Shown here piece after piece: positions 249-3,789 of a stretch of 64,000 bases of DNA (position 1 is its first letter; the number at the start of each line of letters is the position of its first letter). The position numbers and the translations under genes are program-made. The notes beneath the pieces are model-generated. The model saw nothing but the letters and a program-made list of their open reading frames with translations. It was not told where the DNA came from and made no database searches. The stretch covers positions 3 to 64,002 of the forward strand of contig JAGVKT010000077.1 of the NCBI GenBank assembly GCA_020050355.1. Direction: 5' to 3'. This stretch comes from Gammaproteobacteria bacterium (GTDB lineage: Bacteria; Pseudomonadota; Gammaproteobacteria; Francisellales; CACEW01).

Positions 249-267
249 AAATTGGCGGAGCGGACGG
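249..267. repeat. 19-bp direct repeat of the tRNA-Asp 3' end (distal att-like site of an islet)
   Basis: aaattggcggagcggacgg at 249-267 is identical to 3709-3727. Of these, 15 nt (tggcggagcggacgg) are the 3' end of the tRNA-Asp gene at 3713-3789 (minus strand). Confidence 0.7.
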
Positions 268-347
268 CCTTCAAATTATGGTCTACAAGCCTAATAAAAC
301 AAGGATTCCGCTACACCACTCACCTCGGAAGCCCCCACCGAAGCCCC

Positions 348-367
348 CAAAAAGGCTGACTCAGCCT
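348..367 (-). terminator. Possible intrinsic terminator downstream of the fic gene
   Basis: The palindrome aggctgactcagcct (353-367) gives a 6-bp stem with a 3-nt loop. Read on the minus strand it is followed by a T5 run (348-352). It lies about 40 nt past the fic stop. The stem is short, so this is weak. Confidence 0.3.
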
Positions 368-405
368 AATCAGCATCTTATAACATAAAAATTTAATATT
401 CAATC

Positions 406-1929
406 CTACTGAAAACCAGCATTAATCACCAAAATAATATTACCTGCTAACTTTGCATCATTAAGCTGTGAAAATTCCTCTCTAAGTTTATTTGAAACCT
501 GACCATTATTTTCACGAATCGATCGAATAATACGATCAATATCAGCATCAGGGCCATCAAGAAACTCTTTAACATGCTCGCGTACTTGGCGAAAATTACG
601 TAAATAAGAAGCCTCTTGCCGCATTTCTTGCTCAATCGTTAAATCAATAATATTCGCCAAATACTCTACATGATCAGTTAAATCCAAATAACGCCAAGTT
701 AAATTCGCATCCTCATAAGCATCAAATATAAGATTATAGCGAACATCATCTTCAGCAATTTGCACAGGTCCAAAGCTAAAATCCGTTTGATAATGATACA
801 TTAATGGCTTAGAAAGTAATTCTAACACCTGGTCATACCCTCGACGCTTAATCGGAGTATTTGCAATAGTTGCAGAAATTGGCAAAATAAAAGGCTCTGG
901 CACCGCATCATCTCGACGCAATACATCATTCACCAAAAAACGTGAAATCCGCCCGTTACCATCAGACATCGGGTGAATATACACAAACCCAAATGAAATC
1001 ACAGCAGCACGAAGCAGCGATGACTTTCCTTGAGTTCTTATTTCAAAGTCCCGCAAACCTGAAAGCATTGACGGCACATCCTGTGAATTGGGTGCAATAT
1101 AATGAACAATAAGCGCCCAAGGACTTGTTTCCCCTACAAATACCGGAGATTTACGTAAACCATAACGAGTTGCTCGATCCCCCAAAATCTCTTTTTGCAA
1201 CTCAGCTAAAGACTCATCACGAAGTGGACTTTCATATTGCCCGCACCGCTGCTCCATCACCGCCGCAAATCGCTTTACCCGATCAACATTCTTTTCTTCA
1301 TGTTCAATTGCAAAACTCCCACGACTCTCTTTTACTGTCAACCACACAACACTTCGCATCAAAATATCAGCACCAAACTCAACTTCTAATGCCTGCAAAC
1401 GATCTTTGAAATTATATTGCTCTGCGAGTTGCACTTGCTCTGTCCGCATTACCATAGGACAATATTCTCGATTCCCAGGAAGATTATCGCGAATGCGCCA
1501 GCGAAGATTATTAGTGGATATAACAGCAGCCATATAGAGCTGTTCATCTATAGCGTCAATATAATTACCACCATTCACTCCAGGAAAATTTAATTTATGT
1601 CCTGTTAACCATTCATAAAAAAAGCAAGCACGACGGGCATATTGCCCAGTAGGCTCTGCATTAATCCAATTTTCTAACTCAACAACAGGAAGAATTTTAA
1701 ACAAACGTGCCAAAAATTCGAGGTGGACGCCCTCATGCTTTAGTGCAAACGTAAATTGATCGGCAAAAGTATCATCAGGCCGCGCAGAAGCTAAATAGGT
1801 TTTATGAATATGCCCATCTTCGTGTATAGTAGTTCTAGAGCGCGCTATTTTACTATCAATACGAAAAGGCTGCACGGGCTCAACCTTATATTTTTCAGCC
1901 AACCACTTATAACCTATCCAATTACTCAT
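406..1929 (-). CDS. Fic-domain protein (AMPylase/adenylyltransferase family), 507 aa
   Basis: The translation contains FVYIHPMSDGNGRISRFLVN, which matches the Fic catalytic motif HxFx(D/E)GNGRxxR with the H, D, GNGR and R positions intact. An upstream segment GSFAIEHEE resembles the (S/T)xxxE(G/N) inhibitory helix but has H after the Glu. Confidence 0.85.
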   Translation of the reverse strand: MSNWIGYKWLAEKYKVEPVQPFRIDSKIARSRTTIHEDGHIHKTYLASARPDDTFADQFTFALKHEGVHLEFLARLFKILPVVELENWINAEPTGQYARRACFFYEWLTGHKLNFPGVNGGNYIDAIDEQLYMAAVISTNNLRWRIRDNLPGNREYCPMVMRTEQVQLAEQYNFKDRLQALEVEFGADILMRSVVWLTVKESRGSFAIEHEEKNVDRVKRFAAVMEQRCGQYESPLRDESLAELQKEILGDRATRYGLRKSPVFVGETSPWALIVHYIAPNSQDVPSMLSGLRDFEIRTQGKSSLLRAAVISFGFVYIHPMSDGNGRISRFLVNDVLRRDDAVPEPFILPISATIANTPIKRRGYDQVLELLSKPLMYHYQTDFSFGPVQIAEDDVRYNLIFDAYEDANLTWRYLDLTDHVEYLANIIDLTIEQEMRQEASYLRNFRQVREHVKEFLDGPDADIDRIIRSIRENNGQVSNKLREEFSQLNDAKLAGNIILVINAGFQ

Positions 1930-1941
1930 AAATTACCCACT

Positions 1942-1981
1942 TTTCCATAAATTTCTATTAATTTTCATAAATTTCTATTAA
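1942..1981. promoter_or_regulatory. Tandem 20-bp direct repeat immediately upstream of the fic start (candidate operator)
   Basis: tttccataaatttctattaa (1942-1961) is followed directly by ttttcataaatttctattaa (1962-1981), with one mismatch. It begins 13 nt upstream of the fic ATG, in the fic/2145 divergent region. Confidence 0.4.
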
Positions 1982-2101
1982 AAATAGATGTTTTTAAGAA
2001 AAAACGATTAAACCTTATTATATCAATAGAAAACAGAAAAGCCAGCCAATTTTGCCAAATTCAGAAATATCATGAAACTTAAGAGCCATTTGGCTAAAAA
2101 A

Positions 2102-2130
2102 TTGACATAAATATTATTTTAATATATAGT
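2102..2130 (+). promoter_or_regulatory. Sigma70-type promoter for the 2145/2835 two-gene unit
   Basis: TTGACA (2102-2107), 17-nt spacer, TATAGT (2125-2130). The -35 is an exact consensus match and the -10 is close to consensus. Confidence 0.55.
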
Positions 2131-2144
2131 TTACAAAGAACAGA

Positions 2145-2801
2145 ATGCTGCTAATTAAAGAAGAGAAGAGCATGCCACATTCCAGGAAAGAAAAATCCCA
2201 CTTAAAACCATCCACAGCAGCCACTATCAGCTTGCTAACAGCAACGCAAAAAACGCATCTTCCTATCGTCGCTTCAAAAGCCCCACAATGCTTTCCACAC
2301 CGCTCAGCAGAACCAATTCACTTACCTTTAAACAGCTCAACAACAGAGTGCACTGCGGGTATTTATCAGAGCACACACAGAAAACTTATTCTTGCAGCAC
2401 TTGAATTATCTAATTTCGCCAAAGGTGTGGGACCATCTGGAGAAAGATGCAGCGCTTACTTTTCAGGAACAGGTGGACCAAATGAACATGCGGCAAGAGA
2501 GCTCGCTGAAGCATTCGGCTTACTAGCCCCACTCTTATATCTAACACAAAAACTTTTATCTATCACCACTCCTAAAGAATACATCAACTTTTTAAGCCTG
2601 ATTGGATTGGGAGTTTATATATTATCAAGACCAACAACTAATCCTATTGCAATGGCAACAGAAGTTCTAGCATCCGCATTCGCATCAGTACCCGGTGAAG
2701 TAATAGGTGAGGAACTTGGCAAACGGACCGCCTCGACTGTATCATTTTTCACACCAGAAAATACAGTAAAAGCAACAAACACACTAGATTACACCACATA
2801 A
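2145..2801 (+). CDS. Hypothetical protein with a hydrophobic C-terminal half (islet cargo)
   Basis: Long ORF with no motif I recognise. The predicted promoter implies a transcription start near 2137, so the second Met (2172, MPHSRKEK, preceded by gaagagaag) is the more likely start. Hydrophobic stretches include LLAPLLYL and FLSLIGLGVYIL. Confidence 0.5.
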   Translation: MLLIKEEKSMPHSRKEKSHLKPSTAATISLLTATQKTHLPIVASKAPQCFPHRSAEPIHLPLNSSTTECTAGIYQSTHRKLILAALELSNFAKGVGPSGERCSAYFSGTGGPNEHAARELAEAFGLLAPLLYLTQKLLSITTPKEYINFLSLIGLGVYILSRPTTNPIAMATEVLASAFASVPGEVIGEELGKRTASTVSFFTPENTVKATNTLDYTT

Positions 2802-2834
2802 TAACGTTTAACTCAAAAACTTAAGGATAAAAAA

Positions 2835-3236
2835 ATGGCTTTTAATACAAGATTATGGAATATGGCAATGGGTGGAGCTATTGGTGCCGCAGCTGGCTTT
2901 AAACTAGCATTAGCAGCCTGCGACCAGTTACGCACTCTTCCAGAATGTGCTGAATATGTAGATAGCAGCCCCAGAATGAGAGGCCATGTGATTATTGCTG
3001 AATTTGAAGATCCAGGCTGTTATAAAAAATTAACCACTATGGACTGGCCAGACTTAGTAGCCATAGGACATGCTAAATATTATGATCTTCGTACAGAAAG
3101 TTTAAGCCCATTTTGGACCACTACACTTATCATTGCCGGCACATTAACTGGCGCTGCAATAGGCGCAGCAGCAGGAGCAATCTATGGACACCAACGGGCC
3201 GAAGCAGAAAGAGAGCAAAATCATCATAACCCATGA
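2835..3236 (+). CDS. Small membrane protein with two glycine-zipper-like segments (islet cargo)
   Basis: The SD sequence aagga lies 9 nt upstream. Glycine-zipper-like segments are GGAIGAAAGFKLALAA at the N-terminus and IIAGTLTGAAIGAAAGAIYG near the C-terminus. No family assigned. Confidence 0.55.
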   Translation: MAFNTRLWNMAMGGAIGAAAGFKLALAACDQLRTLPECAEYVDSSPRMRGHVIIAEFEDPGCYKKLTTMDWPDLVAIGHAKYYDLRTESLSPFWTTTLIIAGTLTGAAIGAAAGAIYGHQRAEAEREQNHHNP

Positions 3237-3712
3237 TACAACAAAAACAGGACTGCAAAAAAACCACTCTCATTTTAGCCGTAAGGAACAATACCTAAAC
3301 ACATAAATTATTTTTCAAAAATTTTAAACCAAAAGATTTAACACTCATAAAAGAACCAGAACAATAAATTAACAATCATCAACAAATTCAACACCTTAAA
3401 CATTCCAAGCAAAATCATACAAGCTAATTAATTCAAAACCTTCAAGCGATTTTGGGGGCCTCGAACTTTTCACATTCTCGAAGCCCCCAAAAAAGCCCCC
3501 ATTTTTCATTCCTACAAGGCAAAAATGGATAAAAAGAGATCAATAAATTAAAAAGAAAAAAATGCATACAACCTTTATACATCAAGACTTACAACAAAAC
3601 AGATAAAAAATTATGACGGCTCCTGACAACTCAGTTCGAAGGCGGACGCGGCATTCACATCGATCAGCTGGAAGGCTTGATTTATAAGGGCTTGATAGAA
3701 TTAAAAACAAAT

Positions 3713-3789
3713 TGGCGGAGCGGACGGGACTCGAACCCGCGACCTCCAGCGTGACAGGCCGGCATTCTAACCAGCTGAACTACCGCTCC
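3713..3789 (-). tRNA. tRNA-Asp (anticodon GTC), CCA encoded
   Basis: The reverse complement is GGAGCGGTAGTTCAGCTGGTTAGAATGCCGGCCTGTCACGCTGGAGGTCGCGGGTTCGAGTCCCGTCCGCTCCGCCA (77 nt). It folds as a cloverleaf with anticodon loop CTGTCAC and is near-identical in layout to E. coli tRNA-Asp. Confidence 0.95.

Follow-up and report, generated by a model that had tools for sequence, protein, structure and literature searches.

A 3.4-kb islet with a Fic gene between two copies of a tRNA-Asp 3' end: probable remnant of an integrated element that lacks its integrase

How did a Fic gene and a divergent two-gene membrane-protein unit come to lie between two copies of the 3' end of one tRNA-Asp gene, with no integrase beside them? 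The question is raised by the first 3.8 kb of the DNA analyzed here, a stretch of 64,000 nucleotides (nt) of contig JAGVKT010000077.1 from an uncultured gammaproteobacterium, referred to below as the window. The answer that we favor, with a probability of about 0.65, is that positions 268-3708 (the islet) are the remnant of, or a mosaic on, an element inserted by a tyrosine integrase into the tRNA-Asp gene at its 3' end. The attachment (att) sites of such an element and its target would be the following features:

249-267, minus strand: distal direct repeat, attR-like; a displaced tRNA-Asp 3' fragment (253-267 correspond to the last 15 nt, including CCA) plus a 4-nt trailer
3709-3727, minus strand: proximal direct repeat, attL-like; a 4-nt trailer and the 15 terminal nt of the functional tRNA-Asp
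3713-3789, minus strand: intact tRNA-Asp(GTC), called by ARAGORN and by Rfam (66 bits), with a promoter-like site at 3832-3804

The 19-bp direct repeat of the tRNA-Asp 3' end had been pointed out in the initial annotation of this DNA, and it was confirmed. The 19-mer AAATTGGCGGAGCGGACGG was present in exactly two copies in the window, one of them at the intact tRNA gene, even when up to three mismatches were allowed. The chance expectation was 0.01, and none of 100 dinucleotide shuffles gave two or more matches. Similarity between the copies stretched to 23 of 25 positions (243-267 versus 3703-3727). The spacing from copy to copy was 3,460 nt, inside the published length range of 2 to 200 kb for islands.

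The geometry of the two copies was that expected of a tRNA end duplicated by insertion. The proximal copy contains four T-stem bases (CCGT), the 3' strand of the acceptor stem, the discriminator base and the CCA, plus the trailer, its positions 3713-3727 being the final 15 nt of the tRNA gene, CCA included. The distal copy is a bare fragment of the same 3' end, repeated directly in the same orientation and located downstream (on the 3' side) of the minus-strand tRNA gene. Identity ended abruptly on both sides of the repeat: in the 62 nt that follow toward the tRNA body, an ungapped comparison gave 22 identical positions and no local alignment rose above those obtained with shuffled sequences, and on the outer side identity was 11 of 40. 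The block of identity begins at base two of the T stem's 3' strand (CCGT/CCGCTCC/G/CCA), and this start is the T-stem/acceptor junction, one of the three known crossover sublocations ('J') (PMC4383910). No comparable displaced fragments of the two tRNA-Met genes of the window were found. The interpretation as an integration footprint, already proposed from the letters of the sequence, holds by side, orientation, spacing, sharp boundaries and crossover sublocation, as well as by the mobility of the cargo described below.

In the series of events that we propose, a tyrosine integrase would have inserted an element at the T-stem/acceptor junction of tRNA-Asp, rebuilding the tRNA from element DNA. 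The junction with the rebuilt tRNA would be attL (3709-3727), and the original 3' end, displaced by 3.46 kb, would be attR (249-267). The integrase gene would later have been deleted, or would never have lain inside the islet, belonging instead to a tandem neighbor to the left. A deletion associated with an insertion sequence (IS) of the IS3 family would then have scrambled the outer flank of attR. Left over would be an att-flanked islet without an integrase, containing two self-contained modules, namely, the Fic gene with its promoter, leader and terminator and the membrane operon. Xer-dependent integration, of the kind used by IMEX-like elements (integrative mobile elements exploiting Xer), was set aside, the target being a tRNA end that presumably carries no dif-like XerD arm.

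The genes enclosed by the repeats and the signals associated with them are the following (protein lengths in amino acids [aa]):

355-374, minus strand: terminator-like hairpin followed by a T-run, directly 3' of the Fic stop codon
406-1929, minus strand: Fic-domain protein of 507 aa (Pfam Fic; PADLOC PDC-S24)
1930-2055, minus strand: Fic promoter and leader, with a -10 box TATAAT, three TAAT[C/A]G boxes and a 20-nt tandem repeat at 1942-1981
2102-2130, plus strand: near-consensus sigma-70 promoter-like site (TTGACA-17-TATAGT, 11 of 12 positions) for the two-gene unit
2145-2801, plus strand: 218-aa protein, with P0243 (353 aa) as its sole homologue
2835-3236, plus strand: 133-aa protein, with hydrophobic glycine-zipper segments at both its N and its C terminus

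The three open reading frames (ORFs) correspond to the Fic gene and the divergent two-gene unit described in the initial annotation. No tyrosine recombinase/integrase or conjugation domain was detected in them with Pfam, and Rfam returned tRNA only. A cognate integrase elsewhere in the window was not found next to either tRNA-Met gene, the neighbors of both being housekeeping genes. The lack of an integrase, noted from the outset, agreed with these Pfam results and with the six-frame and blastn searches given below. The accompanying idea of a cargo stranded after the loss of its mobility genes stood only in part: an integrase is indeed missing, but its loss from the 470-bp gap beside the tRNA gene is only one option, the others being a location in a tandem neighbor and a supply in trans. 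For its part, the description of the islet as decayed did not suit the cargo, in which the Fic gene is intact, with its motif, promoter and leader, and codon use is host-like; only the 218-aa gene looks shortened.

The cargo is flanked by two non-coding arms:

260-353, minus strand: segA, a conserved arm of non-coding DNA on the inner side of the distal repeat, with two TGGGGGC boxes 12 nt apart (328-349)
3237-3708, no strand assigned: tRNA-proximal non-coding stretch with a hairpin (3450-3464/3478-3492) and a second TGGGGGC pair (3480-3501)

The distal arm, segA, was 75% identical over 95 nt to positions 481-574 of another Fic locus, L086 (E value, 1.3e-12). This homology ended 8 nt into the distal repeat and 3 nt into the acceptor strand. 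The segment is located upstream of the Fic gene in L086 and downstream of it in the window. Homology to L086 past the repeat into the outer flank, or in the proximal arm, was not significant (p = 0.07 and 0.56, respectively). A pattern scan with segA gave nothing in viral contigs and, in metagenomes, one chance match only, inside a recQ gene. The possibility that segA is a pseudo-tRNA was ruled out by the lack of any ARAGORN or Rfam call and of significant similarity to the tRNA body.

The proximal arm was, as first described, non-coding, A-rich and G-poor, with 43.6% A and 12.3% G versus 32.4% and 17.0%, respectively, in the window and with no ORF longer than 48 aa. Its TGGGGGC pair showed the same spacing of 12 nt and the same orientation as the distal pair, and an inverted copy forms the hairpin, which is stable (z = -3.2). 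The two terminal arms together hold all four GGGGGCYTC and five of the nine TGGGGGC occurrences of the window, and the similarity from arm to arm (p about 0.001) was matched by none of 300 control segments. The TGGGGGC-N5-TGGGGGC boxes are possible former arm-type integrase sites; alternatively, they could be parts of terminators.

The context of the Fic gene was compared over 80 loci (L001 to L080) plus L086, and the closest homologues stood in contexts unrelated to one another. The closest relative, with 86% identity, was that of L086, where the gene lies between Bro-N genes, whereas the L001 relative (about 80% identical) is a pseudogene located 153 nt after a tRNA-Leu gene. At the DNA level, the Fic module (412-2055 in the window) was 84% identical to that of L086 and 78% identical to that of L001. 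Seven Pseudomonas loci had the Fic gene at the tRNA-Gly(CCC) locus, 286 to 421 nt past a tRNA gene; in L078 it was found 223 nt after tRNA-Lys, and in L026 it followed a tRNA-Asp gene with an IS21 element in between. Locus L079 was in the same state as the window: the Fic gene stands beside tRNA-Gly, a tRNA 3' fragment matching at 21 of 24 positions lies 8.6 kb off (9599-18288), a cytochrome oxidase operon occupies the space in between, and no integrase was encoded among the scanned ORFs of at least 140 aa. No integrase was present among the neighboring ORFs scanned in L001, L075, L078 and L079. Members of the family were found in 260 plasmid records and in none from phages. Judged from these sequence contexts, the cargo of the islet is demonstrably mobile elsewhere.

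Other observations were made at the same loci. In no fewer than four independent lineages, a PDC-S24 Fic gene was located directly downstream of a tRNA gene of the same orientation (Leu, Gly-CCC, Lys or Asp), which exceeds what a random gene would be expected to show; examples are L001 9763-10001, L075 9625-10004, L078 138-437 and L026 5410-8627. At the Pseudomonas tRNA-Gly(CCC) locus of L077 (8544-8946), a 330-nt stretch with a tRNA-Tyr gene lies beside the Fic gene and has a 22-nt fragment at its end. In L076, also from Pseudomonas, 4.2 kb with a SocA/Panacea gene are enclosed by two full tRNA-Gly copies (5318-9675); a scan of four ORFs at this locus revealed no integrase. In L086, Bro-N (PADLOC PDC-S13) is found twice around the Fic module, with 83 nt repeated at 93% identity (1-83 versus 2463-2545); after the second Bro-N copy, which is decayed, come an HTH_3 gene and the beginning of an orfA resembling that of IS3. 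In L001, close downstream of the Fic pseudogene, a gene for an ankyrin-repeat protein of 807 aa lies between two 2OG-Fe(II) oxygenase (AlkB-like) genes whose 5' parts are covered by a 300-nt direct repeat of 93% identity (11606-11905 versus 15129-15428).

The outer side of the distal repeat is occupied by the remains of an insertion sequence:

1-247, plus strand: IS3-family fragment, matching NCBIfam NF033516 (profile positions 122-169 of 369) and Pfam HTH_21

The truncated IS3-family element reported at this place was borne out by both profiles. The fragment reads rightwards and comprises the end of orfA (about 3-70), an A9 slippery run (61-70) and the N terminus of orfB (74-232), the orfB portion being the HTH_21 domain. 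Neither a DDE catalytic domain nor a complete orfA/orfB transposase with terminal inverted repeats was found in 1-247. A plasmid search gave only distant IS3 matches, and no second copy of the fragment was found in the window. The decayed orfB frame could be traced to about 247, so that the interior of the IS3 element directly abuts the distal repeat, with no spacer. Consequently, the outer flank of the distal repeat is not the original chromosome, and the junction indicates that a deletion occurred outside the repeat. Since the window is nearly the whole of its 64,032-nt metagenome-derived contig, the left edge of the IS3 fragment is the contig end and does not represent a biological boundary.

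Several points weigh against insertion by an integrase and have to be set beside the evidence above. No integrase remnant was detected in ten of the longest six-frame fragments (29 to 48 aa) of 3200-3730, even at Pfam E values of up to 10, and 3237-3712 gave no blastn match to plasmids or phages. The GC content of the islet genes, their GC content at third codon positions and their codon use were host-like, with no compositional sign of foreign origin. The idea of arm-type sites is based on one genome and one homologous locus. On the left, the contig ends 248 nt past the distal repeat, hiding the original chromosomal flank, and some of the repeat itself may have been lost, at its outer end, to the deletion that occurred there. 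Finally, no empty or otherwise occupied tRNA-Asp site was found in relatives, whose AceE was at most 75% identical to that of the window. Exact-protein look-ups with Fic and AceE retrieved no second contig; the next AceE relatives, at 70 to 75%, were L081 to L085 and one record without DNA, and the named ones, at about 62%, were Caedibacter and Fastidiosibacteraceae-like. Upstream of aceE in L081 to L085 there were unrelated genes, with no tRNA-Asp and no synteny, L081 and L082 being syntenic with the window only downstream of aceE.

The left contig end bears on an alternative in which two elements form a tandem array, the islet being the one nearer the tRNA gene and 249-267 an att site between them; the islet would then not be truly stranded but would be a dependent passenger of an integrase shared with the element left of the contig end. 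The contig stops 248 nt past the repeat, inside an IS3 element, and assemblies typically break at multicopy IS elements. In addition, tandem accretion of elements at att sites that comprise the tRNA end is well documented (PMC5704250, PMC4383910), and a P4-like layout would place the integrase of the distal element where the IS3 fragment abuts the repeat. However, the visible 248 nt belong to IS3 and contain no integrase. We consider such an array unlikely, without being far-fetched; it shares the integration mechanism and thus refines the explanation given above rather than contradicting it.

It is doubtful, for its part, that the islet is a minimal and still mobilizable defense cassette, moved by an integrase supplied in trans or from a tandem neighbor. 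The suggestion comes from the two identical att cores and the paired TGGGGGC-N5-TGGGGGC motifs, and it fits the position of PDC-S24 Fic genes behind tRNA-Leu, -Gly, -Lys and -Asp in many lineages, where they lack an integrase of their own.

A different origin of the repeat would be a tandem duplicate of tRNA-Asp that was destroyed except for its last piece, the distal 19-mer, the interior then being an ordinary spacer that gained genes. tRNA genes are often duplicated, as in L076, where two full tRNA-Gly genes are separated by 4.2 kb that include a toxin-antitoxin-type gene, and in the window the truncated IS3 element touches the tRNA fragment. A decaying duplicate should nevertheless leave graded similarity, yet identity fell at once from 19 of 19 to the background (22 of 62 ungapped), and the place of the tRNA body is taken by segA, which is not a tRNA and is conserved at 75% in L086. 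This origin is accordingly improbable. Weakest of all, an assembly artefact or mere chance, with the left 267 nt joined through a shared short k-mer or the repeat devoid of meaning, is very improbable, since for all that the contig is metagenome derived and the junction lies near its end, at an A-rich run and an IS fragment, the expected number of copies was 0.01, segA is conserved in L086 independently of the present assembly, and a chimeric join at the 19-mer would still need a parent molecule in which segA runs into a tRNA-Asp 3' end, an arrangement that is in itself the signature of integration.

With insertion by a tyrosine integrase retained as the preferred explanation, the nature of the inserted cargo can be considered. 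The Fic protein matched the PADLOC candidate defense family PDC-S24 (PDLC04966) over its full length (residues 1-498; E value, 3.8e-178). Its catalytic motif, HPMSDGNGRISR, is intact and of the canonical HxFx(D/E)GNGRxxR type, and residues H319, D323, N325, G326, R327 and R330 were invariant among 42 homologues. An AlphaFold (AF2) model with a predicted local distance difference test (pLDDT) value of 84.5 was matched by Foldseek to SoFic (3EQX), Coxiella Fic2 (8CIL) and mycobacterial Fic over some 360 to 380 columns, with 7CB8 also among the hits; the N-terminal residues (approximately 150) form an extra domain without a solved relative. The modeled fold is SoFic-like with an extra N-terminal domain. 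The gene is a candidate anti-phage defense gene of the AMP-transferase type. PDC families are candidates derived by 'guilt-by-embedding', and their anti-phage activity is only predicted (bioRxiv 10.1101/2024.01.29.577857); a literature search found no paper naming PDC-S24. The notion that Fic might be a hidden recombinase was ruled out, the fold being SoFic-like throughout the matched region and nothing in it recombinase-like.

The leader of the Fic gene was conserved across the PDC-S24 family down to 50% protein identity and travels with the gene. Its boxes are placed around and after the -10 box (1935-2029 of the window, in minus sense) as TAATCGTTTT, together with two tandem copies of the 20-nt unit TAATAGAAATTTATGAAAAT. 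In beta- and gammaproteobacterial Fic homologues of 50 to 64% identity the boxes took the form TTAATCGAAAT. The leader was also observed at L086 700-830, L001 9887-10000, L087 300-428 and many other Fic loci. The TAAT[C/A]G boxes resemble operator sites and may possibly serve autoregulation.

The two-gene unit is transcribed divergently from the Fic gene. The true start of the 218-aa gene is probably the ATG at 2172. A full HMMER scan gave P0243 as the one real homologue of its product, the copy in the window lacking approximately 128 central residues of that protein. When 5.8 billion proteins were searched by a word-based method, the 133-aa protein had no match other than itself. In L091 (Logan SRR28423909), however, P0243 is directly followed by a 134-aa gene whose product is 41% identical to the 133-aa protein; the adjacency of the two genes in both places makes the pair a conserved operon. 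There (150-2902), the pair is divergent from a Fido-related RhuM gene matching PADLOC PDC-S05, a layout that mirrors that of 406-3236 in the window.

The presence of RhuM or Fic beside the membrane pair may indicate a functional link or simply co-location in defense islands. Conceivably, the divergent membrane pair works in one three-gene defense system together with a gene of the Fido type, which is Fic in the window and RhuM in L091. A general partnership of the pair with the Fic family was rejected, as no homologues of the pair were found in the other 80 Fic loci. An otherwise orphan two-gene membrane module is now linked to Fido-type candidate defense genes.

Some features of the rest of the window and of its relatives are recorded here. 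Large ORFs without a Pfam domain were found at 6779-8686 (635 aa, Ala/Pro-rich), 8750-11545 (931 aa) and 29009-29950 (313 aa). Those of 635 and 931 aa follow aceE; in relatives, this place is taken by a thioesterase and DUF2797, or by other orphans. The gene aceF does not follow aceE. Relatives encode ankyrin and OTU proteins. This gene content suggests a host-associated lineage with effector-like orphans. The whole contig shows a strong and uniform strand asymmetry (A, 32.4%; T, 27.6%; C, 23.0%; G, 17.0%), and the cumulative GC skew fell steadily over the first 12 kb profiled, irrespective of gene orientation.

In general, the islet is an ordinary and common kind of mobile-element relic, proposed to have formed by a textbook mechanism, and leaves current understanding unchanged; it adds to this picture a gene with a candidate role in defense, a membrane module of two genes and a non-coding arm, the last two being conserved. 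The islet is an example of a candidate single-gene defense module occupying a tRNA hotspot, in a gammaproteobacterium that is uncultured and probably host associated, and offers a test case for whether helper integrases can still move such islets. Island finders that require an integrase filter out att-flanked islets without one, which are in consequence undercounted.

Among known systems, the islet resembles, on sequence grounds, the cis-mobilizable elements (CIMEs), which retain attL and attR, lack integration and transfer genes, and derive by deletion from integrative and conjugative or integrative and mobilizable elements (ICEs or IMEs) (PMC5704250). Both traits of a CIME, retained att sites and missing integration and transfer genes, were found here, with identical 19-bp copies and no integrase or conjugation domains. 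As in the ICESt1-related CIMEs of Streptococcus thermophilus, the islet is att flanked and holds cargo only, and the 3' end of the target gene is open to tandem integration. Unlike in those elements, the target is tRNA-Asp instead of fda, and the islet comes from an uncultured gammaproteobacterium; neither conjugation nor integrase remnants tie it to an ICE or IME, and the scans retrieved no relative in which the element is intact.

The locus also compares closely with the tRNA gene islands listed by Islander (PMC4383910), sharing with them an intact tRNA gene and a displaced 3' fragment on the right side and in the right orientation, a length above 2 kb and a crossover starting at the T-stem/acceptor junction. 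It differs in having no integrase gene, so that the integrase filter would reject it, and its 3.4 kb are near the lower size limit. As for the Fic protein, fold and canonical motif are those of the SoFic class II Fic AMP-transferases (3EQX/3ZCN; Coxiella burnetii Fic2, 8CIL), from which it differs by some 150 extra N-terminal residues and a sequence identity of only 13 to 16%. Its closest counterpart is PADLOC PDC-S24 itself, with which it shares a full-length profile match, the organization as a single-gene module with its own regulatory region, and occurrence in variable, island-like contexts.

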